A stretch of 64,000 nucleotides of DNA from an uncultured Acidimicrobiia bacterium (GCA_964516495.1 CAZEZF010000001.1:10041-74040), one strand, 5' to 3'. Counted from the stretch's first letter, positions 9,882-56,956 are shown. Notes: generated by a model from the sequence alone, not told the origin. Translations and numbers: made by a program.

Positions 9882-10029
9882 CTCAGCCCCGATTTTTTAT
9901 GCAGGGGTTTGAATGGGTAACCGAGAGAGATGCAAAGAACTCTCTGACCTGGGCGGATAGCCGCTTGGTGGGCTTGGCGCGGCCTTTTAGGGTTCGGTGT
10001 GTCCGGGCATGAAGAAGAATCAGGGCTAG
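9882..10029 (+). repeat. interspersed repeat family copy A (short variant lacking most of the central segment)
   Basis: 5' ctcagccccgattttttatGCAGGGGTTTGAATGGGTAACCGAGAGAG... 3' ...cttggcgcGGCCTTTTaGGGTTCGGTGTGTCcGGGCATGAAGAAGAATCAGGGCTAG. It aligns with the copies at 24201, 41536, 42991, 48764 and 56752. Confidence 0.85.
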
Positions 10030-10204
10030 TGGCGGAGCGTGAGCCGGTGAAGGAATCATCGGTGAATCATCGGTGCGCCGCGGCTCCCAGTTCCTCCGCC
10101 TTCCCATTCACCGACCGGGGAAAATCGAACCAAAGAGGCTTGATGTCTATCCCGGAGTCCGCGCCCCCGACATCGGCAGGCGCCTGAGTTGCGGGTTTAT
10201 GCAG

Positions 10205-11818
10205 TCAATCCGATGCTCCGAAGGGACTATGCTGACCGAGCGCCACCCCCCGCAACTCACGGGCATGTCGATAGCCGCGTCGAGAATCCTCCAGGCCCGA
10301 CAGCATGCGTGACAGTTCCCGGAGTCGTTCGTCCTCGTCAAGAGTGCGAACAGTGGCGTGGGGTCCTTCCCTTTCCACGACTATGTGGGTATCGGCGTAG
10401 GCTGCTATCTGCGGTAGGTGGCTTACGCACATAACTTGCCGATCCGCGGACAGGTGGGCCAGTTTGGCGCCCATCGCCAGCGCAGTGGCGCCACCCACGC
10501 CGGAGTCGATCTCGTCGAACGCGACGAGGCGGGCGTCCCCCGACCCGGACGCAAGTCGCAAAGACAAGACCAGTCGGCTCAACTCACCTCCGGAAGCCAC
10601 TCGTCCTACCGGACCCGGCGCCATCCGGGAGTCCGACGAGAACAGCAGGGTCACGGTATCGGCGCCGGAAGCCCGAGGAACGGACTCGTCTATGTCGATG
10701 CGAACCACCGGATCCGAGAAACCCAGTTCACCTAGATGGGCTATGGCCTCCTCTCCGATGAGGGAAGACGCCTTGCGACGAGCCTCGCGCAGTAGGTCTC
10801 CGGTTTCTTGCAGTTCGCGGGAGGCAATCACCCGATCAGCGTCGAGGTTGGCCACCTGGTCCAGGAGACCGGCTATTTCCGCCCGTCTGGCGACTGCGTT
10901 ATCTCGGTAGATGTTGATCTCCTCGATATCGCTGCCGTACTTCCGGCGAAGGTCGCCCAGCAGACCTAGACGTTCGTTGACAGAAGCGAGTTCTCTGGGA
11001 TCTATATCCACATCCTCCCACGCCTCGCGGGTGGCGGTGGACGCCTCGTTCAGGGTCACGTCTAGGCCTTCCATCATCTCGCTCAACTCCGCCAGTGAGG
11101 GATCCACGTCGCATGCTCTGCGTAGTGCCGCGACGGCCGGTCCGACCCGTTCCCGAGCCGCACTCAGATCCCGACGAGCAGAACCGAGTGACTCCAGGAG
11201 TTGCTCAGCGTTCCCTAGCCGTCGGGCGAGGCGTTCCAGTTCCTCATCCTCCCCCACCTCGAAACCGGCCCCCGCAATTTCCTGTATCTGATAGGTAAGG
11301 AGGTCCTGCTCACGCTCCAAAGTGCGCAGATCGCCTCCAAGACCAGTTTCGGTCGCCTCCAGTTCTCGGCAGCGATTCCAGGCGGCGCGGTAATCGGCAA
11401 TTGGATCGGGCGATCCGATCCGACGGTCCAGAAGGCGCCGCAGGGCGTTGGGTCTGGTGAACGAGAGCGGGTCGTGCTGTCCTACGATCTCCACGAGGGC
11501 GCCGAGACGTTCGGTAAGCGTACGAGCGGGGACCATTTTCCCGTCGAGGTAGGAGCGGCTGCCGCGTTTATGAATACGACGGGAGACGATAAACTCGGTT
11601 TCGTCGTAAAGGAACCTTCCCTCTACGGTGGCCTCACTGCCGTGCGGTCCTATCATGGCTGATCGGGCGGGAGCGCCGGTCAGAAGCCTCAAAGCGCCGA
11701 GCAGGAGAGTCTTTCCGGCGCCGGTTTCACCGCTGACCACCACCATCCCGAGGGATGGCTCCACCCGGGCGTGCTCGATGATCCCCAGATTGGTAACCAC
11801 CAACTCGTCAAGCATCAC
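10205..11818 (-). CDS. recN: DNA repair protein RecN
   Basis: 537 aa. N-terminal Walker A GETGAGKT, long coiled-coil middle, C-terminal SMC-like signature. Confidence 0.9.
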   Translation of the reverse strand: MMLDELVVTNLGIIEHARVEPSLGMVVVSGETGAGKTLLLGALRLLTGAPARSAMIGPHGSEATVEGRFLYDETEFIVSRRIHKRGSRSYLDGKMVPARTLTERLGALVEIVGQHDPLSFTRPNALRRLLDRRIGSPDPIADYRAAWNRCRELEATETGLGGDLRTLEREQDLLTYQIQEIAGAGFEVGEDEELERLARRLGNAEQLLESLGSARRDLSAARERVGPAVAALRRACDVDPSLAELSEMMEGLDVTLNEASTATREAWEDVDIDPRELASVNERLGLLGDLRRKYGSDIEEINIYRDNAVARRAEIAGLLDQVANLDADRVIASRELQETGDLLREARRKASSLIGEEAIAHLGELGFSDPVVRIDIDESVPRASGADTVTLLFSSDSRMAPGPVGRVASGGELSRLVLSLRLASGSGDARLVAFDEIDSGVGGATALAMGAKLAHLSADRQVMCVSHLPQIAAYADTHIVVEREGPHATVRTLDEDERLRELSRMLSGLEDSRRGYRHARELRGVALGQHSPFGASD

Positions 11819-11819
11819 A

Positions 11820-12641
11820 TCACGGAAGGGAGAACTTCTGTTTTACCGTTGCCGGAAAGGACCGGTCGGAGAGGCTGACGAACGAGATCCTCCCGGCGCC
11901 CCGTACTTCGATCAGGCCACCCGGCGCTACGGTCCCCAAATCGAATCCGTCGACCCCCACTCCCACCGAACGGTCCTCCCCTACCTCGATCCGGAGGCTT
12001 CGCTCGGGGGGCAGCACGAGAGATCGCGAGAAAAGGGAATGGGGGGCGACCGGAGTCATGACCAGGGCGTCGAGCGCCGGATCGATCAACGGTCCGCCGG
12101 CCGACAGGTTGTAGGCGGTAGAGCCGGTAGGGGTGGCGACCACCACCCCGTCTGCCCGATAGACGATGAAGGGTTCGTCATCTATGGATATGGCTAGTTG
12201 GACGGTTCGCTGGTTCTGGACCTTTTCGATCACCGCATCGTTCAGACCCGTGACCGGCGGAGATCCTTCAACCGACACCGCCAGGAGCATTCGTTCGGAT
12301 GTGCGCCACTTTCCCGTTATGAGCTGGTGGACGATCAGCGGTAGATCGTGCGGCGCTCCCTCGGCAAGATAACCCAGATGGCCGTCGTTTATACCAAAAA
12401 TGGGCGCTCCGCTGCTACGGCCGATCCGAACCGCTTTCAGGACCGTTCCATCTCCGCCGATTGCTATCACCAGATCCAGCCCGTCCTCAGGTTGGAAGCC
12501 GGTGTCGTCGACTTCGAGGGTGGAGGCGGCGTCGGGCGCCCCTACGACGTCGACACCGTGTCCACGGGCTTCGGTGACCAGATCACGGGCGAGGTCCATA
12601 GAGTGTTGCTGGCCGACATGAGGGACTAGCGCTATCTTCAC
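11820..12641 (-). CDS. nadK: NAD(+) kinase
   Basis: 273 aa with the GGDGT motif (IAIGGDGTVLKAV) and the NAD-kinase C-terminal domain. It is adjacent to recN and tlyA, as in mycobacteria. Confidence 0.85.
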   Translation of the reverse strand: MKIALVPHVGQQHSMDLARDLVTEARGHGVDVVGAPDAASTLEVDDTGFQPEDGLDLVIAIGGDGTVLKAVRIGRSSGAPIFGINDGHLGYLAEGAPHDLPLIVHQLITGKWRTSERMLLAVSVEGSPPVTGLNDAVIEKVQNQRTVQLAISIDDEPFIVYRADGVVVATPTGSTAYNLSAGGPLIDPALDALVMTPVAPHSLFSRSLVLPPERSLRIEVGEDRSVGVGVDGFDLGTVAPGGLIEVRGAGRISFVSLSDRSFPATVKQKFSLP

Positions 12642-13411
12642 CCGGACGCCGTTTCTATCCGGCCCGGCGCCATAGCGGGTTGCCCATGGCGGAATAGGCC
12701 CAGAACCTCTTGGTTGCCTTTGGCTCCCAAGACGGGGGAAGGAATGGTGTCCACCATCTCCAGACCCGACCGCGCCAAGCCACCGACCGTGTCGGCGACG
12801 GCCTTGGCGTGGACTTGTGGATCCTTCACCACGCCCCGACGATCCACAGAACCTCGTGCTGCTTCGAACTGCGGTTTGATGAGCAGAATGTAATCGGTAT
12901 CACTGTCTCCGAGTCCTACCAGAGTCGGGGCGATCGTGCATAACGAGATGAACGAAACGTCTACTACTACCAGTTGGAACGGCGCTCCCAGCCGGGCCGG
13001 GTCGGCGTAGCGGATGTTGGTTCGTTCGACCACGGTAACGCGCGGATCATTGCGTAGGCTGAAATGTAGTTGGCCGTAGCCGACGTCGACGGCCACCACA
13101 CTCCTGGCGCCATGGTAGAGCAGGCAGTGGGTGAAGCCACCTGTTGAGGCGCCCACGTCGATCGCCGCCCGTCCCGAGACAGAGACCCTGAACTTGCCGA
13201 TCGCCGCTTGCAGTTTCAAGCCGCCCCGACTCACATAGCGTGGTCCGGCGGCTGCGAGTCTTATGGAAGTAGAGGGATCTACCAGTGTCGCGGGCTTGGG
13301 TTCAGGGGCGCCGACGACGACCACCTGTCCTTCACGAATAGCGTGAGCGGCGGCGGTTCTGGATTCGACCAGTCGCCTGCGGACCAGCTCGATATCCAGT
13401 CTACGTCTCAT
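12638..13411 (-). CDS. tlyA: TlyA family rRNA 2'-O-methyltransferase (S4 domain plus FtsJ-like methyltransferase)
   Basis: 257 aa. It has an N-terminal S4-like RNA-binding segment and a SAM-binding motif (VDVGASTGGFT). Synteny is tlyA-nadK-recN. Confidence 0.8.
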   Translation of the reverse strand: MRRRLDIELVRRRLVESRTAAAHAIREGQVVVVGAPEPKPATLVDPSTSIRLAAAGPRYVSRGGLKLQAAIGKFRVSVSGRAAIDVGASTGGFTHCLLYHGARSVVAVDVGYGQLHFSLRNDPRVTVVERTNIRYADPARLGAPFQLVVVDVSFISLCTIAPTLVGLGDSDTDYILLIKPQFEAARGSVDRRGVVKDPQVHAKAVADTVGGLARSGLEMVDTIPSPVLGAKGNQEVLGLFRHGQPAMAPGRIETASG

Positions 13412-13685
13412 GGTCTTGCCGAGGCGCCGGCCTCGCCGTCGCGCCGATCAGGGATTCGAGAACCGCCCGAGCCTCCGGGGCGTTACGGTGTTCCAGTCGG
13501 GCGGCCAGTAGATCGGCGAGCGCCTCCGCCGGGACGGCCGACTTCATAGGGTCAACCTCGCTGAGGGCGTCCAGGTAACGGTCCAGCCCATCTCCTGTTG
13601 CGACCGCGCTGTCTGTGGATACGGAGTCATGGCAGTCGTTGTTATGATGATCGCGATCGTGGTGGTCGTTGGCCATCTGGTTCAC
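13401..13685 (-). CDS. small hypothetical protein with His/Asp-rich N-terminus (MNQMANDHHDRDHHNNDCHD)
   Basis: 94-aa ORF overlapping the tlyA start by 11 nt (operon-like). GTG start at 13685, ATG at 13676. There is no recognisable domain. Confidence 0.4.
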   Translation of the reverse strand: MNQMANDHHDRDHHNNDCHDSVSTDSAVATGDGLDRYLDALSEVDPMKSAVPAEALADLLAARLEHRNAPEARAVLESLIGATARPAPRQDHET

Positions 13686-13716
13686 TAACCCTAATCCTCT
13701 ATATCTTCATGTAGTC

Positions 13717-13733
13717 ATGTCTATATGTGACAT
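13717..13733. promoter_or_regulatory. AT-rich palindrome ATGTC-tatatgt-GACAT 32-48 bp upstream of the His-rich ORF
   Basis: Read directly. The arms atgtc/gacat are exact reverse complements. The surrounding 60 bp is far below the local GC content. Confidence 0.3.
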
Positions 13734-14002
13734 ATCTTCTTACCACGGCCACACCGCACCGATGCTCATATCATTACCGGAGATGTCCTGACCGGGTTCT
13801 CGGTCCGGTCAGGAGGTAGGCCAGGCCGAACGCTTGTGGGCCCCGCTCCGCGCTGTTCGGGACCGGCAGGTGTACCCGAGAGTGAACGAGGAATCCGGTC
13901 CGGCCTTTCCTGAAGTCACTGTTGCCGACCGGCTGCCGTATCATCTGTTGGTGTAAGCCTTCGACAGGGTGGATAAGCGCCGGGAAGCGTCGCAGGGAGG
14001 AA

Positions 14003-14758
14003 CCAATGATCCCCATCAGAGACATCAACCCGTCTCTCAGGACGCCGCTAATGACCATCCTGCTGGTGGCCGCATCCCTCGCGGTGTATTTCGCGGTCCA
14101 ACCCGCGGATCCGGAGGAAGAAATCGAGTTCCTGTACCGGCAAGCCGCCATTGCTTGCGAGCAGGTGACAGGTGAAGCCTTGTCGGCGACCGAAATAGCA
14201 TCGCAGGATTGCACCGACGGTGACGAGACCCCGCTCTTTGCCGACAAGTCGCTCCTTCTCAGCGTGATCGTTTCGATGTTTCTGCACGGCGGGATTGCCC
14301 ACCTGCTCGGCAACATGTGGAGCCTCTACCTGTTCGGCAATAACGTGGAGGATGCCTACGGGCGTTCGGGTTATCTTATTCTGTATCTGGGTTCGGGTGT
14401 TGTGGCGACCTTCGGGTTCGTTGTGTTGAATCCGGAGACTACGGTTCCTCTGGTAGGGGCGTCGGGCGCGATTGCCGGGGTTATGGGCGCCTACCTGGTT
14501 CTGTTTCCTTACGCCCGGGTGGTAAGTGTGTTCCCGCTGCTTTTCTTCATTCCCTTTACCGTTCCGGCCGGTTGGTTCCTTTTATTGTGGTTGATAGGAC
14601 AGTTTGCTTTCACATCTTTCGAGACGGGGGTGGCCTGGGAGGCCCATGTGGCGGGGTTCCTGTTCGGGATGTTCGTAACCATCATCTTGAGGCGTCCCCT
14701 TTTGAGCCGGCTGGCCCGGCTCGATCAACGCCGTCTGGTTCAGATGGGATACAGGTGA
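14003..14758 (+). CDS. rhomboid family intramembrane serine protease
   Basis: Catalytic GASGAIAGVMGAY (GxSG) and the His-containing helix AHVAGFLFG. Probable start MIPIRDINPSL at 14003; the ORF-track start at 13922 is likely too long. Confidence 0.75.
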   Translation, partial: PMIPIRDINPSLRTPLMTILLVAASLAVYFAVQPADPEEEIEFLYRQAAIACEQVTGEALSATEIASQDCTDGDETPLFADKSLLLSVIVSMFLHGGIAHLLGNMWSLYLFGNNVEDAYGRSGYLILYLGSGVVATFGFVVLNPETTVPLVGASGAIAGVMGAYLVLFPYARVVSVFPLLFFIPFTVPAGWFLLLWLIGQFAFTSFETGVAWEAHVAGFLFGMFVTIILRRPLLSRLARLDQRRLVQMGYR

Positions 14759-14906
14759 ACCGATAGAGGGTCCCGGAGGCCGAAAGCCCGTTAGCGCGAG
14801 TGTCCTGATCCTCGAATCCGCCGATAGCCTTATCGTTGTCGCCATCGGCCCCGAAGACATGAGACCGCGACAAACTTCCGATCTTCATCCGGGTAGTAGG
14901 TCGGGG

Positions 14907-16271
14907 TCAATCCCGATCCTGATCGGGGAGGCGTTCGATGATCCGGTCAAGCAATCGGGCGGTCAGACCCAGGGAACCGATTCCTATTCGCTCGTCGTTT
15001 CCGTGGAACATGCCCAAGAAGTCGCTGAACGGTACCCGATCATCGAACAGGCCCACGCCGTAGGCCGGTGTCCCTCTCGCCCGGAAGAATCGCGCGTCGG
15101 TGGTTGCCGGGGTCATGGCCGGTACGATCCTCCGGCTTCCGGTCAGGGATTCGTACGCGTCCCCGACGGCTTTCCAGAGGGCGCCTTCAGCCGTCGAGGT
15201 GTTGGCAGGCTGGTGGATGATGTCCTCTATGTCCAGGTCCTGGTATAGGGGTCCCAGCGCCTTACGCAGGTGACCATCGACTACCTCCTCCGTTTGGTCG
15301 GGCAGGACCCGCATGTCAAGGGACGTCTCTGCCAGGTCGGCCACGGTGTTGGCCTTGGTTCCTCCGGCGACCAGGTTAGGACTGATGGTCAGGTGGGTGC
15401 AGGCATGCACCCAGCGCGCCAAGGTCGGGTCAGCATCCGCAATATCTTCGATCTCGCGGTCGATCAGGTCCGAGTCGAGAAGTGCGGCCACGCGGTCGGT
15501 ATCCCATCCGACTCCCTTCACGAAACTTCGCCATTCAGGGGTTATCTCCACCGGTCCGTCCGTACCGGTGAGGGCGACGATGGCTTCCGCCACCTTTACC
15601 ACCGCGTTCTCGGTCCGGTAGGGCTGACTACCGTGGGACGGGATGCCCTTACCCCTTAAGATTTTCCAGCAAGGGCCTTTCTCCGCCACCTTGACCGGGT
15701 ATACCGGAGATTGACCCGGTACCCGGACGCTCGGGTAGGCGATCTCGGTCAGCACATAGTCGCATTCGACCAGTTCAGGCCGGTTGTTCATTATCCAATC
15801 GGCGCCTAGGCCGCCACCTTGTTCCTCATCTGCGACCGCCAGGTAAACCAGGTCGCCCGCCGGAGGGCGACGGCGTCTACTCAGGTAAGGCTTGAAAGTG
15901 ACCGCCATGGCCGCGGTCAGGTTCAACATATCCACGGCGCCCCGTCCCCAAACCATTCCGTCGATGACCTCACCGGCGAACGGGTCAACCGTCCAACCTG
16001 ATTCGGTTACCGGAACAACGTCCAGATGACCCATCATCAGCAGGGTCGGCGCTCCGGGTTCCGCTCCAGGTACCCGATACACCACGCTTTGGCGGGACGG
16101 CGCCGGTTCCACGACCACGCCCGCTTCTCCGAAGTATGCCTCCAGTGTGGACACCGAGCGTTCTTCATATCCCGAACCGGGGGATCCGTCGTTGATGCAG
16201 CGGTTTCTGATGAGTGCTTGAAGTAGCTCCAGCACCTCACCTTCGACTCTGCTCGTGCGGTTGGCGTTCAT
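14907..16271 (-). CDS. M20/M25/M40 family peptidase (dipeptidase-like)
   Basis: 454 aa with the M20 metal-binding pattern (GHLDVVP, ADEEQGGG). Confidence 0.75.
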   Translation of the reverse strand: MNANRTSRVEGEVLELLQALIRNRCINDGSPGSGYEERSVSTLEAYFGEAGVVVEPAPSRQSVVYRVPGAEPGAPTLLMMGHLDVVPVTESGWTVDPFAGEVIDGMVWGRGAVDMLNLTAAMAVTFKPYLSRRRRPPAGDLVYLAVADEEQGGGLGADWIMNNRPELVECDYVLTEIAYPSVRVPGQSPVYPVKVAEKGPCWKILRGKGIPSHGSQPYRTENAVVKVAEAIVALTGTDGPVEITPEWRSFVKGVGWDTDRVAALLDSDLIDREIEDIADADPTLARWVHACTHLTISPNLVAGGTKANTVADLAETSLDMRVLPDQTEEVVDGHLRKALGPLYQDLDIEDIIHQPANTSTAEGALWKAVGDAYESLTGSRRIVPAMTPATTDARFFRARGTPAYGVGLFDDRVPFSDFLGMFHGNDERIGIGSLGLTARLLDRIIERLPDQDRD

Positions 16272-17202: not shown

Positions 17203-17325
17203 ACCAGAAGGCTAGCGGCGCCGATTCTCCGGAGTATCCGGTTCGACGAAGGCGGGAGGTGTCTGCTATGCGGTGTCCGTTTCAGGTAGATCGACAGCGC
17301 CAGGGATGTGCTCTGATCATGTGTA

Positions 17326-17757: not shown

Positions 17758-17766
17758 GCCGATTGT

Positions 17767-22217: not shown

Positions 22218-23156
22218 TCAGGACTCATCGTATCTGGCGAGGATTTCGCTTCGAAGACGTTTCAGCTCCTCCTCTACCTTCCGTCCCTTGACAAGGCGAG
22301 CTTTGTCGCCCAGGCGGACGAGAAGGCGAGCGGCCACTCTGGGATCGGCCGCGCTGAAACGAACCTTCATCTCGGTTCCGTTGTCCTCGATGACCTTGAC
22401 CGGGTAGTACTCGGCTACCCACCGGGCGGCGGGCCCCAGTAGCAGTTCGGATTCGATCGCGTCAGCCGGGGGCGCGAACCCGATCCGGGGTCGGTCCCTA
22501 TCCGGTGGAGGTGTGAAGGTTTCCGCCAGGAGGCGGAGGGACCTTATCCGGTCGATTCTGAAGGTTCGATCGTCTTTCGCGAGTCGGCACTTTGCGGATA
22601 GGTACCAGCGACCCATCGAGGCGTAGGTGATGAGCGGTTCTACTACCCGGTCGGTTGTCTTGTTGGCGCCTACCGATAGATAGGTCATCTTGACCGCCCG
22701 ATGTTCGCCTGTCGCCTTCTGGAGATCGGCGAGGTGTACGGGTTCGGCCGGCAATTCAGCTCCGATGACCGGCGCGGCGTCGGGAAATACCACGGCAGCC
22801 AGTTTCTCGACCGCCGAGGAAAGAGCCGCATTGCCGTAGCTGGTCCCATCAACCGCCATCCCGGCGCTGAGCAGTCCCAGGGCCTCGGGCGGGGTCAATT
22901 TCAAGGGCCGGGAGAAGTAGTCGGCGGTATCGAGGATAACCACGTCGTCCTCGATAGCCGCCCATATCAGGTCGTCTGGTCCGTAACCAGGTACCCCGCA
23001 TAGGAACAGGAGGGACAGGTCTCCGGCCAGCTCCTTCTCGTTGCGATAGCCGAACCTGTGAATTACTTCGGACACCGTCGGATAAGGGTTGGCGAGTATC
23101 CAGGGCATCAACGCCAGGATGCGCACCAGCCGTCGCTGGGTTGAGGTAATGGTCAC
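22218..23156 (-). CDS. pafC: proteasome accessory factor PafC (HTH-WYL domain regulator)
   Basis: 312 aa with an N-terminal HTH and a WYL-type C-terminal domain. Position tatA-pafC-pafB-pafA matches mycobacteria. Confidence 0.65.
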   Translation of the reverse strand: MTITSTQRRLVRILALMPWILANPYPTVSEVIHRFGYRNEKELAGDLSLLFLCGVPGYGPDDLIWAAIEDDVVILDTADYFSRPLKLTPPEALGLLSAGMAVDGTSYGNAALSSAVEKLAAVVFPDAAPVIGAELPAEPVHLADLQKATGEHRAVKMTYLSVGANKTTDRVVEPLITYASMGRWYLSAKCRLAKDDRTFRIDRIRSLRLLAETFTPPPDRDRPRIGFAPPADAIESELLLGPAARWVAEYYPVKVIEDNGTEMKVRFSAADPRVAARLLVRLGDKARLVKGRKVEEELKRLRSEILARYDES

Positions 23157-24082
23157 GAGTCGCCTCTCACCCGACGGATGAGCATGCGGCGAAGATCAGA
23201 CGGCGCCAACAGCACGGCTGCCGCATCCACTTCCAGGAGGGCGTCTATAAAGGACTCCGGTTGCGAATATGGGATGTCCAAGACGAGAGCGCCATCGTGG
23301 CGCCGCTCGACCGCCACGGCTTCGGGAAAGCGGTTCTCGGCCCACCAGGCCACCTCCGGGTCCCACCGCACGGTTGCGATCTCTTCCTTTTCTGCGTCAT
23401 CCCAGGGTTGGGAGGAGAGGATGTCCCGAGGAGAGAACTCATCGGGTCGTTCGAACGCCTCGGCGGGCTCTTGTACATCCACTTCGTCGGCGCGGTCCAA
23501 TCGATAGGTGCGCACCTTTCCGTCTCCGTCGACTTCCGCTCCCGCGAAATACCAATGGCCGTTCCGATAATAGACACCGTACGGTGTGATGTGTCTAGCC
23601 CTGTACTTATATATAAAGGTAATACAGCGGCGTTCCAGAACAGCATTGAACACCTGGTCCAGCAAACGGCTCTCAAGGCCCAGATCAGCGCCGAAGGGCT
23701 TGCCGGATTCTCCCAGTCGCGCTCCTCCGAGCTTTAGTAGGGCAGTGGATCCTGCGGGCCACTCTCCTGCGTTGACCATGCGTACGGCCAGCGCGAGAGC
23801 GGAACGTTCCTCCTCTGTCAATCCGGGATCGACTCTCTGGTATTGCTCGCTCGGGATGACGTAACCCAATTCGACTTCCCACACATCGGTAGCCTGCAGT
23901 TCGAGCGAGAATCCGATCTGGCGCAGGATGCTCTTGTCTCTGGAGAACTTGCGGCGGAAGGCATGATCGGACGAGTTTCCGTATCCTTCTACCTTGCTCC
24001 GGATCTCTTCGCTTGTGACAGGTCGTTTCGCATCCAGCAGGTACGCCAGCAGGTTGATCCGACGCTCAATGACTGCGCTCAT
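23153..24082 (-). CDS. pafB: proteasome accessory factor PafB (HTH-WYL domain regulator)
   Basis: Probable start MSAVIERRINLLAYLLD at 24082. The ORF-track start at 24253 would run into the repeat copy B region. Confidence 0.65.
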   Translation of the reverse strand: MSAVIERRINLLAYLLDAKRPVTSEEIRSKVEGYGNSSDHAFRRKFSRDKSILRQIGFSLELQATDVWEVELGYVIPSEQYQRVDPGLTEEERSALALAVRMVNAGEWPAGSTALLKLGGARLGESGKPFGADLGLESRLLDQVFNAVLERRCITFIYKYRARHITPYGVYYRNGHWYFAGAEVDGDGKVRTYRLDRADEVDVQEPAEAFERPDEFSPRDILSSQPWDDAEKEEIATVRWDPEVAWWAENRFPEAVAVERRHDGALVLDIPYSQPESFIDALLEVDAAAVLLAPSDLRRMLIRRVRGDS

Positions 24083-24200
24083 CCTTATCCCTGATTGTAG
24101 GAGGGTACCGAAGAATGAATCTATCGGGTTTACCGGTTGACAAACTAACGATCCAAGCGCCTCGCTAAACGGGCGAGCCCCATTGTACGGGAGTTCTTCC

Positions 24201-24408
24201 CTTAACCCCGATTTTAACGCAGGGGTTTGAATGGATAACCGAGAGAGACGCAATGAACTCTCTGACCTGGGAAAATAGCTGTTTGACGGCCTCGCCTGTC
24301 CGGAGGGCGCCCTTCACCTGTAGGGTGATCGCCTGACACGCCGTGAAGATACGTTTGACGCGGCCTTTTCGAGGTCGGTATGACGGGGCATGAAGAATTG
24401 GGGTTAAC
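24201..24408 (+). repeat. interspersed repeat family copy B
   Basis: cttaaccccgattttaacGCAGGGGTTTGAATGGATAACCGAGAGAG...TTTGACGCGGCCTTTTCGAGGTCGGTATGACGGGGCATGAAGAATTGGGGTTAAC. It lies between the pafB start (24082) and the pafA stop (24511). Confidence 0.85.
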
Positions 24409-41314: not shown

Positions 41315-41535
41315 TGCAGGATAACGGGCCTTCCGGAGTAGGGCCTGATCGGCGGGTCAACGCCGGAAACCATGCTACATGCTGTGGCTTCCCATTCGAT
41401 ATGAAGTTGATTGGTCTCGAATGCTAGTACTAGATATATTAGATAGCAGTATATTATAAACCCGTATGTTCTGTTCAAGCCGCTGTACCCGGTCACCGTT
41501 TCGCCGGATGGCAAGACATCCTCTACGCCATGGTT

Positions 41536-41746
41536 TAAACCTGATTCTTTACGCCCCTGTCACACCGAACTCAAAAAGGCCGCGTCAAGCCCACCACTTT
41601 TGCGCCGCGTCAAGAGATCACCCTGCGGGTGAAGGGTCACACTTCGACCGGGTGAGGCCGCCATCAGCTATCTTCCCAGGTCAGGGAGTTCATTGCATCT
41701 CTCTCGGTTACCCATCCAAACCCCTGCGTAAAAAATTGGGTTTGAG
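41536..41746 (-). repeat. interspersed repeat family copy C (reverse orientation)
   Basis: Reverse complement reads caaacccaattttttacGCAGGGGTTTGGATGGGTAACCGAGAGAG...GCTTGACGCGGCCTTTTTGAGTTCGGTGTGACAGGGGCGTAAAGAATCAGGTTTAAA. Its 5' terminus overlaps the start of the tadE-like gene. Confidence 0.85.
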
Positions 41747-42113
41747 AGGCGAATCGGGTGGAACCTCGGTGGAGTTCTTGGTGGCGATCATGACTGTGCT
41801 GGTCGTGATGGTGTTCTTGTTCAACGCTATCTTCATGCTGTACGCCAGGTCCGTAGCCCACCACGCCGCCTACCTCGGCGCCCGCAGCGCCGCCCGTCCG
41901 GGTGGAAGCGAGGCTTCGTGCGAGTCGGTTGTAGGCGCCACCTTCGAGTCACTCGCCTCCATGTACGCCGATGACACCTCAGTGCGGTGTATAAGGGGTT
42001 CGACCGTTACCTCGGCCACGGTCCGCGCCGACCTGGGTCCCGTATTCGGTGACCTGGGACCGCGGTGGCGATTCACCATCCGCGGTTCCGCCGTGACGGA
42101 GCCGTTCTCTTGA
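41736..42113 (+). CDS. TadE-like pseudopilin family protein
   Basis: TTG start. GGTSVEFLVAIMTVLVVMVF matches the TadE N-terminal motif (V/A-E-F then a TM segment). Confidence 0.6.
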   Translation: MGLRGESGGTSVEFLVAIMTVLVVMVFLFNAIFMLYARSVAHHAAYLGARSAARPGGSEASCESVVGATFESLASMYADDTSVRCIRGSTVTSATVRADLGPVFGDLGPRWRFTIRGSAVTEPFS

Positions 42114-42136: not shown

Positions 42137-42556
42137 ATGCATCATCAAGAGGGCGCCGGCGCTGTCGAGTTGGTCCTGGCGGTGGCCTTGCTGATGTTCC
42201 CGATCTCCCTGTTGCTGCTGACCCTACCCATCCTGGCGGAGTATCGTTCGGTCGGCGACGCGGCGGCTCGAGAAGCTACCCGAGCCTGCGCCATCGCGAA
42301 CAACCCGCAGAGCGGGACGGAGAACTCCGAGCGTATTGTCCGGCGAATCATCGCCGAACGAGGCCTGGCGACCGAGGACACAACCGTCGAAACCGACTGT
42401 GCGACTGCGTGGAGACCCGGCGGGGTAGTCACCGTTTCGGTCTCGTTTCAAGTACCGGCCATGCAGCTCCCCGGGATCGGTGAAGTCGGGAGGATGACGA
42501 TCCGGCGCACCTATTCCGAACGTATAGAGTTCTACCGGAGCGAGCCGAGCCGATGA
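42137..42556 (+). CDS. TadE-like pseudopilin family protein 2
   Basis: MHHQEGAGAVELVLAVALLMFPISLLLL has the same N-terminal motif class. Start chosen at ATG 42137. Confidence 0.55.
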   Translation: MHHQEGAGAVELVLAVALLMFPISLLLLTLPILAEYRSVGDAAAREATRACAIANNPQSGTENSERIVRRIIAERGLATEDTTVETDCATAWRPGGVVTVSVSFQVPAMQLPGIGEVGRMTIRRTYSERIEFYRSEPSR

Positions 42557-42990
42557 AGAACGTCGGACGCAGAGGGTTGACCGAGGAGAGTGGTTCCGTC
42601 ACTCTGTGGGTCCTGGGTTTCGTAATGGTTCTGTTCTTCGCAGGGGCTCTGACCATGGATATGTGGCGGGTGGTTTCCTATCACGGAACGTTGGTGGGAA
42701 TCGCCGACAAGGCGGCAATTGCCGGAGCGACCCGGATAGATGTCGAGTCGCTGTACGGCAACCTCATCGTGTTGGTTCCCGAGGGCGCCGAAAGAGCGGC
42801 GAAGGACTTCGCCCGAAGCCAACCTCACTGGGATGAAGAGTCCATGACGGTCCTGGCCTACGCCGATCGATCACAGGTGTCGGTAGAGGTGACCGGAATC
42901 GTTCAACTCAGCCTGTTCAAACTCTTCGCGCCGTCCCGGGGAATCGTCTTGAACGTTCGGAGCGACGCCTCTCCGGCAATCTTCACCTAA
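42553..42990 (+). CDS. TadG-like (Tad_N domain) pilus-assembly protein
   Basis: ESGSVTLWVLGFVMVLFFAGALTMDMWRVVSYHGTL matches the Flp-pilus TadG-like N-terminal domain. It overlaps the previous gene by 4 nt. Confidence 0.6.
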   Translation: MKNVGRRGLTEESGSVTLWVLGFVMVLFFAGALTMDMWRVVSYHGTLVGIADKAAIAGATRIDVESLYGNLIVLVPEGAERAAKDFARSQPHWDEESMTVLAYADRSQVSVEVTGIVQLSLFKLFAPSRGIVLNVRSDASPAIFT

Positions 42991-43199
42991 CTAACCCCAA
43001 TTTTTCATGCAGGGGTTTGGATGGGTAACCGAGAGAGGTGAAATTAACCACATGACCTGGGAAGATAGCTGCGTGACGGCCTCGTCTGGACGGGGCGCCC
43101 CTATCACCCGGAGGTGAAGGCCGGGACATCCCGTGAAAGTGGGCTTGACGTGGCCTTTTTGAGTTCGGTGTGTCTGGGGCATGAAGAATCAGTGCTAAC
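42991..43199 (+). repeat. interspersed repeat family copy D (forward, starts 1 nt after the tadG-like stop)
   Basis: ctaaccccaatttttcatGCAGGGGTTTGGATGGGTAACCGAGAGAG...GCTTGACGTGGCCTTTTTGAGTTCGGTGTGTCTGGGGCATGAAGAATCAGTGCTAAC. It is inverted relative to copy C. Confidence 0.85.
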
Positions 43200-43483: not shown

Positions 43484-43505
43484 TTGCGCTCCTCCTTGCC
43501 CACGA

Positions 43506-44870: not shown

Positions 44871-44992
44871 GTTCCAACTATCGTCTGTCTGCGAAGATCT
44901 GGGTATAGGGGATCACCCTGAAGAATCCCTGTATCGGAAATGATCGGTACAGGTGCATTCCCCATTGTCGGACCCGGTCGGTTAGTGGGACA

Positions 44993-48676: not shown

Positions 48677-48763
48677 CTGAAGCTCAAATTAGATCATCGC
48701 CGGTTAGCGGTTATCTGATTCCGGCTACGGCCCCTCCCCCGGGGAAGGCGTTGATCTCCGCAC

Positions 48764-48972
48764 CAGCTCCAATTTTTCACGCAGGGGTTTGATTGGGTTA
48801 GCCGAGAGATAGGCTAGGGACACCCCTGACTTGGGAGGATAGCTGCTTGGCGGCCTCTACTGGCCGGGGCGCCCCCATCACCCTGAGGTGAACGCCGGGA
48901 CGACCCACGATGCTGCGCTTGACGTGGCCTTTTTGGGTTCGGTGTTTCTGGGGCATGAAGAATACGGGCTAA
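48764..48972 (+). repeat. interspersed repeat family copy E (forward)
   Basis: cagctccaatttttcacGCAGGGGTTTGATTGGGTTAGCCGAGAGAT...GCTTGACGTGGCCTTTTTGGGTTCGGTGTTTCTGGGGCATGAAGAATACGGGCTAAT. Confidence 0.85.
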
Positions 48973-49019
48973 TCGCGCACGGCTTCTTGCGTTTCGCCGA
49001 CCGATCCCGGAGTCGTGTA

Positions 49020-50995: not shown

Positions 50996-52518
50996 GTCTC
51001 CGCGCTCCGAGGATGGGTGATCTCGTGGATGAGGCGCCTTGAATCGGTCTCGGCCCGGTCGCGCTTGCTTACCTGGGCGCCGCGGAAGTAGGTAACCACG
51101 GTGTCTGCGATTCCCAGCACCTCCTGGGTGTCCGACGATGCGAACACGATACCCATACCCTCGGAGGCGATGGCTCGCAGGTGGCTGTAGATCTCGGCTC
51201 GCGCGCCCACATCGACCCCGCGGGTCGGCTCGTCGACCAGCAGCACCCTGGGGCGGGCGCCGGTCCACTTCCCCACCGCCACCTTCTGCTGATTCCCTCC
51301 GCTCAAAGTTCCTGCGAGAGAGCCCAACCGGGAGCGGTCGATGGTAAAGGTACGGGCGATGCGGTCGCTCATCGTCCGCTCGGCCCGCCTGCGTAGCCAA
51401 CCGGCGGTGGCCACCAGGCCGAGGCTGGGTGAGGTGAGGTTCTCTACCACTGTCCGCTGCAGGAAGATGCCGTCCCGCTTACGGTCTGCAGAGCTATAGC
51501 CGATACCGTTCTCGATAGCGGCTGCCGGTGAATCGGCCGGAACCGGGCTACCCGCCACCGTCACCGACCCGGACATCCGGGTTTCGTGGCCGGCTATAGC
51601 CTTCAGGGTCCCGCTGGCGCCGCTGCCGAGTTGTCCGGCCAACCCGACGATCTCACCGGAACGCACGTCGAGCCGGATCGGCGAAGCCAATCCTCGGGTG
51701 CGTAGGTCCCTTACCTCCAGTACGATCTCACCGTATTGCCGGTCGACCCGTTCCGGAAACAGCGCGGCCAGACTGCCTCCGAGCATCATGGAGATCAGGT
51801 CATCCAGCGAGATGCCGGCGGTGTCAACCGGAGCGTTGGACCGCCCGTCCCGAAACACCGTAACTCGGTCCGCCAACTCGAATACCTCGTCGAGACGGTG
51901 GGTTACATAGATGATCGATCGGCCCTCGTCCTGAAGTGACCGTACCACCGACTTCACCCTCTCGATTTCCCGGTCGGCCAAGGCGGCGGTCGGTTCGTCG
52001 AAGATCAGTACCCGCGCTTTCCTGGCCAGTAGTCGAGCTACCTCGATGAGTTGTCGTTCCGCGACCGTGAGCCGTTCGATCCGGAGAAGAGGGTCAAGAT
52101 CGCCCAGGCCTACCTGCGCTAGGAAGGGTGCGGCCGTTTCGGCCAGCTTTCCGGGTGCGGCGTTCCAGCCCCGCCTGGTGTCGCCCAGAAAGATGTTGTC
52201 GGCCACCGACAGGGTCGGTACCAGGGATAGCTCCTGCTGGACCACCGCGATACCGGCCTGTTCCGACCGGGTGGCCCCGCTGAACTCGACCTTCTCCCCG
52301 GCCAATGAAATGTGACCCTCGTCAGGGGTGTACATTCCGGCAAGTATCTTCACCAGGGTGCTCTTGCCCGCCCCGTTCTCCCCTACCAGAGCCATCACCT
52401 CACCGGAGCGCACCTCGAAATCCACCGAGTCGAGCGCCAGGATGGATCCGAAAGCCTTCGAGACCTCCCGCATCAGCAGTAGTGGGTGGGTGGGTGTCAC
52501 AGCTGTCCTTCCGGCCAT
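50992..52518 (-). CDS. sugar ABC transporter ATP-binding protein with two fused nucleotide-binding domains (RbsA/MglA-like)
   Basis: Two Walker A motifs (GENGAGKST and a degenerate second copy), two LSGG signatures, 508 aa. Confidence 0.85.
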   Translation of the reverse strand: MAGRTAVTPTHPLLLMREVSKAFGSILALDSVDFEVRSGEVMALVGENGAGKSTLVKILAGMYTPDEGHISLAGEKVEFSGATRSEQAGIAVVQQELSLVPTLSVADNIFLGDTRRGWNAAPGKLAETAAPFLAQVGLGDLDPLLRIERLTVAERQLIEVARLLARKARVLIFDEPTAALADREIERVKSVVRSLQDEGRSIIYVTHRLDEVFELADRVTVFRDGRSNAPVDTAGISLDDLISMMLGGSLAALFPERVDRQYGEIVLEVRDLRTRGLASPIRLDVRSGEIVGLAGQLGSGASGTLKAIAGHETRMSGSVTVAGSPVPADSPAAAIENGIGYSSADRKRDGIFLQRTVVENLTSPSLGLVATAGWLRRRAERTMSDRIARTFTIDRSRLGSLAGTLSGGNQQKVAVGKWTGARPRVLLVDEPTRGVDVGARAEIYSHLRAIASEGMGIVFASSDTQEVLGIADTVVTYFRGAQVSKRDRAETDSRRLIHEITHPRSAET

Positions 52519-53393
52519 CCGGCCCGGGACAGAACCTCGGTGGCCGCGTCAAAGGACACCCGGGCCGCCTCCAACGGATGCATGGCGGCCTGGCGGTCGG
52601 ACAGAACTTCTATACCCATGAGGGGGCGGGCCCCTGTTCCGGCGAGTTCTGCGAGGAATCCCGGAAGATCGAAGGCGCCCTGACCAGGAAGAAGGCGATG
52701 CCTCGTAGTGTCCAAGACCATATCGTCCAAGGGTGGGCCGGCATCGTTTAACGCCACCGCCAGGATCAGACGGGGGTCGACCACGGCCAGTTGGCCTCTG
52801 TGGGAAGGTCCGCGAAAGTAGTGCCAGGTGTCGAGGTCTATACCTGCGTTGTCCCGTCCGGCCAACTCGATGATCCTGGCGGCCGTTTCCAGATCAGGGA
52901 TCGATGTCCACGGCATGAACTCGATAGCCGCCTTCACTCCGAACTGCGCCAGCCGGTCACAAACCGCCCCGAAACGTTCGGCCACCAACCCGAGGGGCCG
53001 CCCCGGAGGGAAACGCACATCCCCGACGTTCACGTGATTAGGCCGGAAGACTTCGGCCATATGGTAGAGATTCTCCGCTATCGCCGCCGGCCTCTCGGCA
53101 TCCTCATCGTCGTGCATCCAATCGAACAGAAACTCGACTTCCGCCACCTCGACACCATGCCGGTCGAGGATCTCGATCATCTCCTCGTCTCCTACGCCCG
53201 AGGCGCGCATGCCCGAGTAGTCCGCCTCGCCCAACCCGATCGCTCGATAGCCGGCCGCGGCGGCCGCCTGCACCCTCACCTCGAAAGGCCAGGGCGACTT
53301 GGTACCGTACCCGGCGCCCACCGGCGAACCGGCGATCGTGAAATGGCCGGCGAATAGATCGAATCGGGGAACGGACTTATCGGTCGTGGTCAA
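52497..53393 (-). CDS. sugar phosphate isomerase/epimerase (xylose-isomerase-like TIM barrel)
   Basis: Metal-binding pattern of AP-endonuclease-2/xylose-isomerase-like TIM barrels (HVNVGD, EFMPW, DLDTWH). The start is uncertain and there is no ATG. A TTG at 53393 was chosen because the longer ORF would overlap the VOC gene by 125 nt. Confidence 0.55.
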   Translation of the reverse strand: MTTTDKSVPRFDLFAGHFTIAGSPVGAGYGTKSPWPFEVRVQAAAAAGYRAIGLGEADYSGMRASGVGDEEMIEILDRHGVEVAEVEFLFDWMHDDEDAERPAAIAENLYHMAEVFRPNHVNVGDVRFPPGRPLGLVAERFGAVCDRLAQFGVKAAIEFMPWTSIPDLETAARIIELAGRDNAGIDLDTWHYFRGPSHRGQLAVVDPRLILAVALNDAGPPLDDMVLDTTRHRLLPGQGAFDLPGFLAELAGTGARPLMGIEVLSDRQAAMHPLEAARVSFDAATEVLSRAGWPEGQL

Positions 53394-53487
53394 GACGGTT
53401 GTCCTGCCCGCGTCGATGGCCGGAGCGCTCCCGGGTGAGATAGGGCGGCGCCCGGACGCCGGCCTCGGATCACGAGCCAAGGAGTAA

Positions 53488-53958
53488 TCAGTCCAGCCAT
53501 TCCTCCCCGGCGAGCCAGGCCTCCATTCCAGGACGGCGACCGGCTTCGATGAACTCCAGGCGGGTCCCGTACAGTTCATCGGGGGAAGTGTAGGTGGCCA
53601 GGATGCGATCATCGGGCATGTATTGGGTGGCCTCGTTCTTCAAACCGAGGCCGACCAGCCGCTCGATCAAGGCCTCCGGATCAGGCTCCCACAACCCGAT
53701 ATGATGAAGGCCTTCCTGCTCGCGCCCGTAGAGACCGTCGCTGTCCTGGGATTCGAGCAACTCGAGGTAGGGAGGACCCTGTACAGACCAGGTGATACGA
53801 AGATCGAGTTCCTCCACTCTCGACTTCTGTTCGAATCGGTCGACATGGGCTATCGCCGGTTCCTTGAAGGTAAGCCCGAGTACATCGGCGAAGCGTTCTG
53901 TCGCCTCATCGAGATCGGGTACCAGAACCCCTACATGGAAGAGCCTGGTCGCCGTCAT
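53488..53958 (-). CDS. VOC (glyoxalase/bleomycin-resistance/dioxygenase) family protein
   Basis: 156 aa. N-terminal RLFHVGVLVPDLDEATERF is the typical VOC beta-alpha-beta-beta-beta module. Confidence 0.65.
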   Translation of the reverse strand: MTATRLFHVGVLVPDLDEATERFADVLGLTFKEPAIAHVDRFEQKSRVEELDLRITWSVQGPPYLELLESQDSDGLYGREQEGLHHIGLWEPDPEALIERLVGLGLKNEATQYMPDDRILATYTSPDELYGTRLEFIEAGRRPGMEAWLAGEEWLD

Positions 53959-54050
53959 CGTCCTTTGACACCTGTCATAGACATACCCCTTCCCTCACGC
54001 CCACGCCTTCATCCCCGCGCCGACATTCGAGGAATCCATCCTTTGAGCGG

Positions 54051-54099
54051 GGCGGGACGGCGATGGTGGAGGCCGCCGTCCCGCCGTATACCTTTTTTT
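54051..54099 (+). terminator. intrinsic-terminator-like hairpin on the plus strand (12-bp GC stem, 11-nt loop, then T7)
   Basis: ggcgggacggcg-atggtggaggc-cgccgtcccgcc gtatacc ttttttt, read directly. The T-run is 7 nt from the stem. There is no plus-strand gene upstream, and it faces the 3' end of the minus-strand substrate-binding-protein gene. Confidence 0.35.
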
Positions 54100-54108
54100 C
54101 GGCGCCCG

Positions 54109-55158
54109 TTAGTAGACGCAGAGGTCGGCGACGCCCAGGCCTTCCACCATTACGCTTTCGATCTCGTTCACTCCCGGTGTGTATACGGGGCTACGGACGG
54201 GCGGGTTGGGAATGAAGTTGTTGAAGCTCTCCAAACTGCCGTTGCTGAGATACTCGTGGAGGGTGTTCACGCTGAAGACCCCCTCGAGCCGGGCGGCCTG
54301 CAAACCGGTTGCGAACTCCGTTCCGTCGATCAGGTGGTCGAGATTCCCGTGGCAGGTGCCGCCGACGACCATCACGTCCTGGCCCGGGTGGTAGCCCTCC
54401 TCTTCAAGAGCCTGGATCACCCCTTCCGCAAGGGATGAGTTATGCGCGTAAACCAGGTCTATGCCGGCGTTGCGGTGGGCGGCGATCAACTGCTTGGTGC
54501 CGTCATATCCTTCCGCGGGTCCGAAACCGACATCGACCTCGCCCAGCACGCTGATGTTGGAGCGCGCCAGGATCGGCAGAGCCGCGCCGGACCGGTCGAT
54601 TCCGGCCTGGTAGCCCGCTACGAAGCCGATCACGATCGCATGTCCACCGGCGCCGTGAAGCTCCATGCCGTTGGCGACCATGTGGTCGCGAGCCTCGATG
54701 AGGAGGTTGGCGGCAACTTCGCCGTTGAGACGGTCGTTGACCCCCGCGTAGCCGACCACATAGTTCTCGGAGCCGGGGAATGGGAGCTGGTTGGTCTGGA
54801 TGACCGGAACCCCGGTGTCGGCCAAGGCTCTCAGGGATGCGACCCCCGCCTCGTTGTCGGATGGCCACCACGCATAGGCGACCACATCTTCGTCGGCGGC
54901 GCCCAGCTGCTGCTGAACCTGCGTGTCCTGTTCCGCCTGATCGAAGTTGTTCTCGACTATCACGAGGTTGTAACCCAGCGATGTGGCCGTCTCGTCGGCG
55001 CCGCGCGCCCATTCGGCAATGTATGTGTTGGTCGTCGTGGGAATGAAGGCGACTATGGTACCGCCCTCGGTGCTTTCGTCCTCGCTTGCACAACCGGTCG
55101 CCACCAGCGCCAGCGCCAACAACGCCGCCAGGACGGCCATATTCCGTCTATTTCGCAT
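54109..55158 (-). CDS. sugar ABC transporter substrate-binding lipoprotein (RbsB-like PBP1)
   Basis: Lipoprotein signal MRNRRNMAVLAALLALALVATGCASE followed by a PBP type 1 domain. Confidence 0.8.
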   Translation of the reverse strand: MRNRRNMAVLAALLALALVATGCASEDESTEGGTIVAFIPTTTNTYIAEWARGADETATSLGYNLVIVENNFDQAEQDTQVQQQLGAADEDVVAYAWWPSDNEAGVASLRALADTGVPVIQTNQLPFPGSENYVVGYAGVNDRLNGEVAANLLIEARDHMVANGMELHGAGGHAIVIGFVAGYQAGIDRSGAALPILARSNISVLGEVDVGFGPAEGYDGTKQLIAAHRNAGIDLVYAHNSSLAEGVIQALEEEGYHPGQDVMVVGGTCHGNLDHLIDGTEFATGLQAARLEGVFSVNTLHEYLSNGSLESFNNFIPNPPVRSPVYTPGVNEIESVMVEGLGVADLCVY

Positions 55159-55449
55159 GTTCCGGATCCTCCCTCACGGCCTGCTTCACGGTCCACTGAG
55201 CGGCGATCAGCCAGAAGCAAGACAGCGGCCTTGTGGACAACTTACGAGATTCTACCCGAAGGAGTAGGGCGTCGGCAGGGAATCAGGCCTATTCCTGACC
55301 CTTGTTCACAAGTGGCCGACAGGCCTCGGCTGCGAACGACACCCTATAGGTAACCGGCGTCAGTAGCGTTACCTGATCCGAGTGCGTTTGTAATCCTTCG
55401 GCAAGGGAATCACCCTGGGACGGGAGCGGGCCGATTCCCATGTGACGGC

Positions 55450-56718
55450 TCAGTACTCATTGGCCACCATCAATTCCTCGGCCGGGAAGAGCGTAACCAC
55501 CTTGGGTCCCTCCGCCGTACATACCACCTGCTCCTCGATCCGCGCCGCTGACCGTCCATCGGCAGCCGGGCAGAACGTCTCGAGCGCGAAGAACATACCC
55601 TCCTTCAACTCGATGGGGGTATCTATGGAGTTCAGGCGGCTGATCACCGGCCGCTCGTGAACGGCTAGACCGACGCCGTGGCCGAACTGGAGCCCGAAGG
55701 CCTCCATTTCGTCAGGGAAACCGAACTCATCCGCCTCGGGCCATGACCGGGCGATCTCATCGGTGGTGGTTCCGGGCTTGACGAGTGCAATCGCGGCGTC
55801 TATCCACTCCCGGGCCTTCTTGTATGCGTCACGTTGAGCCTGGGTCGCCCTTCCTACCACAAAGGTTCGGTAATAGCAGGTGCGGTAGCCGTTATAGGCC
55901 TGGATGATGTCGAAATAGGCGGTGTCGCCGGGACGGATGAGCCGGTCGGAAAAGACGTGTGGATGGGGACTGCATCGTTCCCCGGCGATCGAGTTTATGG
56001 CTTCCACATGTTCGGATCCCATCTCGTAGAGCCGCTTGTTGGCGAGCGCCACTATGTCCGATTCCCGCACGCCCGGCTTGAGCGCTTCGAATATATTCTG
56101 ATAGACCCCGTCTACCATCGCCGAGGCCTGGGTGAGAAGGGTGATCTCGTCCGAACTCTTGATCTCGCGCGCCGCCAGCATGGTCTGCTGGCCGTTCCTG
56201 ACTTCGATCCCGGCCCTTGCCAGTTCGAGGAACATCTCCGACTCGGCCATGTCGACACCGACGGGCATCCCGGCCACTCCCTCGTCGCGGAGAACCTCGG
56301 CTATTTCCCGTACCGCCCTGGTCACCAACCCGGTCTCGGGACCTATCGACCCCGCCAAACCGGTGTTGCCGCCTACCGATTGCTCCGGAACCAGCCAGGG
56401 GGCCTGCAGTTTGTGGACCCGAGCCGCGGATCCGAAATCCCAGATCCAGGGTTCGCCGGTCCGGGTCAGCAACGCCCAACGCTCCATCTTGTTAAACGCC
56501 CAGTAACCGATGTGGGTAGCGGTCAGGTAGCGGATGTTGGCGGTATCGAAGACGAGAAGCGCTCCCAGGTCGGACTCCTCCAGCGCCTGCCGCGCCCGTG
56601 ACAGCCGGTATGCGCGAAGCCGGTCGAAGTCGACCCGTTGCTCCCAGTCCACCCCCATCACTCCGGGGGAAGGAGTGGTGGCTACCGGGAACTCGGGCGC
56701 ACGCTCGGTGTTTTCCAT
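55450..56718 (-). CDS. M24 family metallopeptidase (Xaa-Pro aminopeptidase / creatinase-like)
   Basis: N-terminal creatinase-N domain plus C-terminal pita-bread fold with metal ligands (D..D..H..E..E pattern visible). Confidence 0.75.
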   Translation of the reverse strand: MENTERAPEFPVATTPSPGVMGVDWEQRVDFDRLRAYRLSRARQALEESDLGALLVFDTANIRYLTATHIGYWAFNKMERWALLTRTGEPWIWDFGSAARVHKLQAPWLVPEQSVGGNTGLAGSIGPETGLVTRAVREIAEVLRDEGVAGMPVGVDMAESEMFLELARAGIEVRNGQQTMLAAREIKSSDEITLLTQASAMVDGVYQNIFEALKPGVRESDIVALANKRLYEMGSEHVEAINSIAGERCSPHPHVFSDRLIRPGDTAYFDIIQAYNGYRTCYYRTFVVGRATQAQRDAYKKAREWIDAAIALVKPGTTTDEIARSWPEADEFGFPDEMEAFGLQFGHGVGLAVHERPVISRLNSIDTPIELKEGMFFALETFCPAADGRSAARIEEQVVCTAEGPKVVTLFPAEELMVANEY

Positions 56719-56751
56719 ACGGTACCTTTCGAATAGACGCTGATCAGGACT

Positions 56752-56956
56752 CTAGCCCTTATGCTTCTTCACGTCCCAGACACACCGAACCCGAAAAGGC
56801 CACGTCAAGCGCAGTATCGCGGCCCGTCGGGAGATCCCCCTACGGGTCGCTCTCCGATCAGGCGAGGCTGCGACGTAGCTATCCTCCCAGGTCAGAGAGT
56901 TCACCGCATCTCCCTCGGTTACCCATTCAAACCCCTGCGTGAAAACCTGGGGCTAA
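56752..56956 (-). repeat. interspersed repeat family copy F (reverse orientation)
   Basis: Reverse complement reads ttagccccaggttttcacGCAGGGGTTTGAATGGGTAACCGAGGGAG...GCTTGACGTGGCCTTTTCGGGTTCGGTGTGTCTGGGACGTGAAGAAGCATAAGGGCTAG. It lies between the M24 peptidase start (56718) and the ADH stop (56953). Confidence 0.85.

Follow-up and report, generated by a model that had tools for sequence, protein, structure and literature searches.

Six dispersed ~200-bp repeats in an uncultured Acidimicrobiia bacterium as probable copies of a transposase-less miniature inverted-repeat element inserting at YTAR sites

What are the six similar repeats of about 200 bp that are scattered over a 64,000-nucleotide stretch of DNA from an uncultured Acidimicrobiia bacterium (GCA_964516495.1 CAZEZF010000001.1:10041-74040, hereafter the window), and how did they reach their positions? 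[quoted passage not shown] The most probable answer, to which we assign a probability of roughly 85%, is that these are genuine repeats and represent copies of a non-coding, transposase-less MITE that inserts at YTAR sites in a little-known group of Acidimicrobiia. This MITE assignment is supported by diverged family members elsewhere, by a filled/empty pair of sites that differ by a TTAG in addition to the element, and by the YTAR flanks. The family is short and non-coding, possesses terminal inverted repeats and dispersed copies, and shows insertion polymorphism, as is usual for MITEs. The element features also agree with bacterial MITEs as described in the literature (PMC4596501).

Alignment and blastn both yielded six copies in the window, in both orientations, and reproduced the positions and strands that had been reported before. 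A degenerate 25-nt pattern of the 3' module (TTGRCGYGGCCTTTTNGRGKTCGGT) matched exactly the six copy sites, while 0 matches are expected in shuffled sequences, and nhmmer profile searches of the window revealed no seventh copy. The layout corresponds to the earlier description, namely a 5' module, a variable centre and a 3' module, with an element length of 139-203 nt. Copy A lacks ~60 nt of the centre; since this gap is flanked by the internal direct repeats GCTTGGYGG / GCTTGRCGCGG, the loss looks like a simple deletion. The earlier figure of 85-90% identity within the modules was recovered for some module pairs (78-91% by blastn) and does not extend to whole copies, for which the pairwise identity is 70-85%. 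The 16 of 20 matching positions previously given for the terminal inverted repeat are found in the consensus ends of the window subfamily. In the individual copies, the repeat is imperfect and covers 13-19 bp (CCCCRATTnTTCA... / ...TGAAnAATCAGGG). After trimming, the element begins with CCCC(R)ATTTTTCA and finishes with TGAAGAATCAGGG, and on either side of each trimmed element stands a YTAR-like tetranucleotide. The similarity between copies stops exactly at these YTAR flanks.

The family is also present in related genomes. Contigs of relatives (L002, L003 and L009-L013) were found through neighbouring proteins, which share 84-93% identity with the proteins of the window loci. Using the six-copy profile, nhmmer detected the members L003x (L003:3664-3874, E=2e-9), L002x (L002:18175-18386, E=6e-5) and L009x (L009:15943-16153, E=2e-7), and a fourth member, L009F (L009:19352-19551), was added by alignment. 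These four members, found in 85 kb, are full-length, display the same architecture as the window copies and lie mostly at non-orthologous sites. They share the ends CCCCGATTATTCATGG ... CCTGAATAATCAGGG, and in the terminal inverted repeats of their subfamily 12/13 positions match. Compared with the window copies, they are 45-57% identical, while L003x, L002x and L009x, from three genomes and three sites, are 87-93% identical among themselves. No family member was observed in L013 or in the more distant relatives L010-L012, with ~21 kb covered for each (13 kb for L011), and plasmid records gave no blastn match to the repeat. Since members occur in only some of the relatives and are absent from the examined parts of L010-L013, the family is limited to a narrow clade, with genome-specific subfamilies.

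The relatives provide a direct comparison of a site with and without the element. In the spacer between tRNA-Gly and TrmI, L003 is filled and reads ...CAAGCCCCTTTAG[CCCTGATTATTCAGG ... CATGAATAATCGGGGTTAG]ATTGTTTCTC..., with the element in the outer brackets, whereas L002 and L013 are empty and read ...CAAGCCCC(C)TTTAGATTGTTTCTC..., with a single TTAG and near-identical flanks. The filled sequence exceeds the empty one by precisely the element and one additional TTAG, and this addition can equally be read as one extra TA. The target-site duplication that the earlier note had named as potential support for a mobile element was thus seen at L003 versus L002/L013, and perfect 4-nt repeats surround copies B and D of the window. 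As established by a filled/empty pair, this duplication belongs to the sister subfamily (L003), and not to an empty site of the window copies themselves.

Insertion polymorphism was observed for the window as well. The orthologous spacer of copy B contains no element in L002, L003 and L013, those of copies C and D contain none in L009 and L012, and that of copy E contains none in L009. Reciprocally, the sites that are filled in L002, L003 and L009 (L009x) carry no element in the window. Exact empty-site boundaries were not obtained for copies B-F, as these spacers in the relatives are too diverged to place them. The case for the window copies is thus built on their flanks and on their absence from the orthologous spacers of the relatives, and from these two lines we infer that all six arose by the same mechanism as L003x. 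The site of L002x does not allow a clean empty-site comparison, because L003 (18225-18385) and L013 (18126-18286) lack ~45 nt next to it; this stretch, which is bounded by the short direct repeats CCTGATT, is kept in L002 (18120-18530) and in the window. At site F, located between the start of an M24 peptidase gene and the stop codon of an ADH gene, window copy F and L009F occupy exactly the same position, with the flanks CTAG...CTAA in both. The two elements have opposite orientations, belong to different subfamilies and are only ~50% identical. This could reflect independent insertions at one TA or a flip of the element between its terminal repeats.

The flanks define the target. On the right side, YTAR is found in 10/10 members, and on the left side in 7/10, the other three having YCAR, while the background frequency of YTAR in the window is only 2.2 per kb. 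Perfect 4-nt repeats border L003x, copy B (24202..24407, + strand; element 24206-24403, 198 nt; TTAA/TTAA) and copy D (42991..43198, + strand; element 42995-43194, 200 nt; CTAA/CTAA). Copy A (9883..10029, + strand; element 9887-10025, 139 nt, centre deleted) is flanked by TCAG on the left (9883-9886) and CTAG on the right (10026-10029), and copy E (48763..48972, + strand; element 48767-48968, 202 nt) by CCAG on the left and CTAA on the right. For the two copies on the - strand, the flanks in element orientation are TCAA on the left and TTAA on the right of copy C (41535..41745; element 41539-41741, 203 nt), and TTAG on the left and CTAG on the right of copy F (56752..56956; element 56756-56952, 197 nt), which appear on the + strand of copy F as CTAG (56752-56755) and CTAA (56953-56956). 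The outer flank bases are equal in 7/10 members. The bases adjoining the TA are complementary in 8/10 members, which favours a TA duplication, while the non-palindromic CTAA/CTAA at copy D and L003x leans to a duplication of 4 bp.

Insertion sequences (IS) of the IS630 type duplicate the TA within CTAG. The target duplications of IS5 have the motif YTAR and comprise all four bases (PMC5009759), and IS711 duplicates the TA of its YTAR target (PMC2266754). Therefore, both readings of the flanks are compatible with the IS5 family. By analogy with these elements, the mobiliser is likely a DDE transposase acting in trans, with either the IS5-type (YTAR) or the IS630-type (TA) target choice. Such an enzyme, encoded elsewhere in the genome, would bind both inverted ends, excise or copy the element and join it into a YTAR target by staggered cuts. 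Subsequent repair would duplicate either the whole YTAR, as for IS5, or its central TA, as for IS711 and IS630. Both the family of this transposase and its action in trans are what we infer as the probable source of mobility. If the density of 6 copies per 64 kb is extrapolated to the whole genome, the copy number would be in the hundreds.

Several observations weigh against the MITE assignment. No relative is close enough to offer an exact empty site at any of the six window copies, copies A, C, E and F have flanks that repeat each other imperfectly, and the flank data do not separate a TA from a 4-bp duplication. The analysis revealed no autonomous partner IS whose ends match, and a transposase gene was seen neither in the window nor, by their Pfam lists, in ~150 kb of related loci. 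Within the window, Pfam scans of 40 open reading frames (ORFs) detected no transposase domain, in agreement with what the earlier note had stated. Exact-pattern scans with the 5' core (GCAGGGGTTTGNNTGGNTAACCGAG and variants) and the 3' core of the window subfamily gave no true match in GTDB species genomes, JGI metagenomes and IMG/VR, these patterns being too specific for diverged subfamilies. Two sequences hit by these patterns (L004 and L005) are chance matches within unrelated sequence. Finally, several internal blocks are kept between subfamilies that are only ~50% identical, and this conservation counts against a MITE because simple neutral decay does not predict it. The conserved blocks, together with the absence of stop codons on one strand, would be accounted for if the element were also under selection for some property, which we regard as unlikely. 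Such a property might be that genes tolerate the element in frame, as copy C in a tadE-like leader might illustrate, resembling the Rickettsia palindromic elements (RPE), or a DNA or RNA signal used by the host at gene ends, where three members abut stop codons. The pair in opposite orientations at site F could also mean an inversion in place.

Other explanations of the repeats must be compared with the transposition of a MITE. If they were structured non-coding RNA genes or cis-regulatory RNAs, the terminal inverted repeat would form the closing helix. In every member, the forward strand indeed folds more stably than the reverse by 8-20 kcal/mol, G-U pairs occur several times at the termini, where one pair switches from U-G to A-U from one subfamily to the other, and the hairpin TCACC-loop-GGTGA as well as the blocks TGACCnGG and TCGGTGT are kept across subfamilies. 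However, RNAalifold applied to the ten members retained only the terminal stem and a few helices of 2-5 bp (-5.4 kcal/mol, with almost no covariation term). Fold z-scores against dinucleotide shuffles ranged from -2.9 to +1.6, most of them within ~2 standard deviations, and the interior without the ends was unremarkable. Because the z-scores are ordinary and the interior is inconspicuous, the difference in stability between the strands reflects base composition, and the outcome of RNAalifold together with the comparison to shuffles led us to reject the RNA-structure hypothesis. Rfam 15 returned no match in the whole window at gathering scores and none over copies C and D at E<=10, in keeping with the previous remark, in which the repeat was not recognised as a tRNA, rRNA or standard riboswitch. 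Furthermore, the orientation of the copies with respect to their neighbours is inconsistent: copies A and B are antisense to the direction of the flanking operon, copy F has the opposite relation, and copies D and E have convergent neighbours. A precise insertion that duplicates its target is also not something RNA genes show, which leaves this explanation very unlikely. The Correia/ERIC-type signals that had been considered at first found no support either, since the only conserved helix is the terminal repeat, the folding is ordinary and no promoter-like site was detected in any copy. A weak terminator-like hairpin of 5-6 bp (GGGCTTGACGYGGCC followed by TTTTT) is present in copies C, D and E and missing from the subfamily of the relatives.

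A different kind of mobile repeat, either REP/REPIN sequences mobilised by an IS200/IS605-like (RAYT) transposase or a palindromic element inserted in frame like RPE, would share the palindrome-like form, the high local density and the location mostly between genes. In 5/6 copies, a frame of the reverse strand contains no stop codon, and copy C lies in frame (69 codons) within a tadE-like ORF, as would be expected of an RPE. Nevertheless, REP/REPIN make no target-site duplication, which is present here, no RAYT-like gene occurs in the sequences examined, and the lengths of element plus flank (143, 202, 207, 204, 206 and 201 nt) are not consistently multiples of three. The variable columns are distributed over codon positions 1/2/3 as 36/30/35, thus without codon periodicity, and on these counts the coding hypothesis was ruled out. 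Likewise, the translated stop-free frame has no homologue among 5.8 billion proteins, and only 1/10 members sits in an ORF. The peptides shared by short ORFs that overlap the copies are therefore a by-product of nucleotide conservation, as had been proposed, and an origin as REP/REPIN or RPE is hardly probable. The repeats could also be invertons, i.e. promoter-bearing segments flipped between inverted repeats by a site-specific recombinase, in line with their shortness, their inverted-repeat ends, their position mostly between genes in both orientations, and the opposite orientations of the window and L009 members at site F. Besides the lack of promoter-like sites, this is contradicted by copies D and E, whose place downstream of convergent genes would leave a promoter switch nothing to act on, and by copy E having the same orientation in contigs of three sequencing runs (L006-L008). 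The filled/empty pair at L003 with its TTAG duplication indicates insertion rather than inversion, and no recombinase gene was found nearby in the Pfam scans of the window ORFs, so that invertons are highly improbable. Local segmental duplications, or an intergenic motif spread by recombination, would confine the repeats to one stretch of the genome, and the scans of public genome, metagenome and viral collections indeed gave no further copies of the window subfamily. Against this refuting possibility, which the earlier note had itself raised, stand related members at different sites in three other genomes, the exact end of the similarity between copies at the YTAR flanks, the precise insertion boundaries at L003, and the breakage of short-read assemblies of the same organism inside copies; its probability is close to negligible.

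The window is a chromosomal segment of Acidimicrobiia with a GC content of ~61%, and its best named homologues are proteins from Acidimicrobiia metagenome-assembled genomes. It encodes Pup-proteasome, Tat, Tad-pilus cluster, PDH E1 and mycothione reductase genes and the ATP synthase operon. Copy A is situated between a ROK regulator gene and a recN-like gene, both on the - strand, and copy B in the pafA-pafB spacer. Copies D and E each lie between convergent genes, D at 1 nt past the TAA stop of ORF 42553-42990, and E between a mycothione-reductase-like gene and an ABC permease gene. The claim that all copies are intergenic does not hold for copy C, which is located inside the tadE-like ORF 41466-42113(+), in frame. 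Together with one flank, it contributes 207 nt, corresponding to 69 stop-free codons. Conceptual excision of copy C gives a 146-aa tadE-like protein that is collinear with the 144-aa and 146-aa orthologues of L009 and L012, including the leader preceding GGTSVEF. This collinearity shows that copy C was inserted in frame into a predicted prepilin-type leader and not between genes.

Other copies affect neighbouring genes at their ends. The longest-ORF call for pafB (window 23153-24253(-), 366 aa) extends into copy B, while its orthologues comprise 309 aa and start at a conserved MSAVIERR (near window 24082), indicating that the repeat can inflate gene calls. Three members abut stop codons, namely copy F, whose flank CTAA (56953-56956) contains the TAG stop (56953-56955) of the ADH ORF 56953-58062(-), copy D (42988-42994), and L002x, whose flank TTAA contains the TAA of an L002 gene (L002:18173-18175). 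In a GC-rich genome, such adjacency would be expected of an element that targets YTAR, and it suggests that stop codons are favoured targets there.

The repeats are also visible in the fragmentation of assemblies. Logan short-read contigs that three runs (SRR22586461, SRR8304785 and SRR8304783) yielded for this organism end inside copies E and F. The contigs L001 and L006-L008 break off within copy E, the orientation of which is the same as in the window. These contig ends are explained by a multi-copy repeat, which fragments assemblies.

Two further observations were made in the window. At 42549-42586(+), inside a coding region, sub-threshold matches to archaeal C/D-box snoRNA models were obtained (sR34, 27.5 bits versus a gathering score of 40, E=0.015), which are almost certainly due to chance. 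In addition, 4877-5881 and 5885-6889 form a ~1005-nt tandem duplication within ORF 4872-7133(-), identical except for the junction bases. It fuses two copies of a periplasmic sugar-binding protein gene into a 753-aa ORF with two Peripla_BP_4 stretches, while related genes elsewhere encode 349 aa. Either the duplication happened very recently or it was introduced by the assembly.

Taken as a MITE, the family is undescribed and apparently abundant in an uncultured, little-known Acidimicrobiia lineage, and searching the literature for MITEs together with Acidimicrobiia gave no result. The lineage is new, whereas the kind of element is ordinary and involves no new mechanism. Its practical consequences concern assembly, as the repeat breaks short-read assemblies of these organisms, and annotation, as it gives rise to false ORFs and to gene calls that run too long (pafB, the tadE-like gene). 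The insertion polymorphisms can be used as strain markers. Moreover, the family hints that a transposase of the IS5 or IS630 type is, or was until recently, active in the lineage.

How does this family relate to known systems? The Correia elements of Neisseria and the RUP elements of Streptococcus pneumoniae are ~100-200 bp long, carry terminal inverted repeats and are associated with a TA duplication. They occur in hundreds of copies, in both orientations and near gene ends, and a variant with an internal deletion exists, the short Correia form, which copy A parallels. In sequence and host phylum, however, they are unrelated to the repeats described here. Correia elements possess 26-bp inverted repeats and documented promoter, IHF-binding and RNase III-processing features, whereas our repeats show no promoter-like site or special fold, and the likeness is by analogy only. 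The ends found here, which begin CCCCRATTnTTCA, presumably do not resemble the Correia terminal repeat. IS630/Tc1-mariner-type elements duplicate a TA in a short palindromic target, and their MITE derivatives are common. In contrast to the CTAG of IS630, the targets here are YTAR in general, comprising CTAA, TTAG, TTAA and CTAG. RPE are palindromic repeats that can sit in frame in protein-coding genes, as does copy C, which adds 69 codons to the tadE-like ORF. Unlike RPE, this family offers a single in-frame case, with the other copies between genes, and shows target-site duplication and no coding signature.

The remaining comparison is with the IS5-family ISs and their MITE derivatives, i.e. 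IS5, IS711 of Brucella, the ISNme1-derived ATR and the ISPg-related BrickBuilt. In contrast to these, the parent IS was not found, and the host belongs to an uncultured Acidimicrobiia lineage. Typical bacterial MITEs are present in 10-20 copies per genome (PMC4596501), compared with which the local density here, 6 per 64 kb, is high. In common with the IS5 family, the repeats have a YTAR target (IS5, PMC5009759; IS711, PMC2266754) and short, imperfect terminal inverted repeats of ~13-20 bp. Like the MITE derivatives of this family, which measure ~100-1000 bp (PMC4596501), they have no transposase and are for the most part intergenic.

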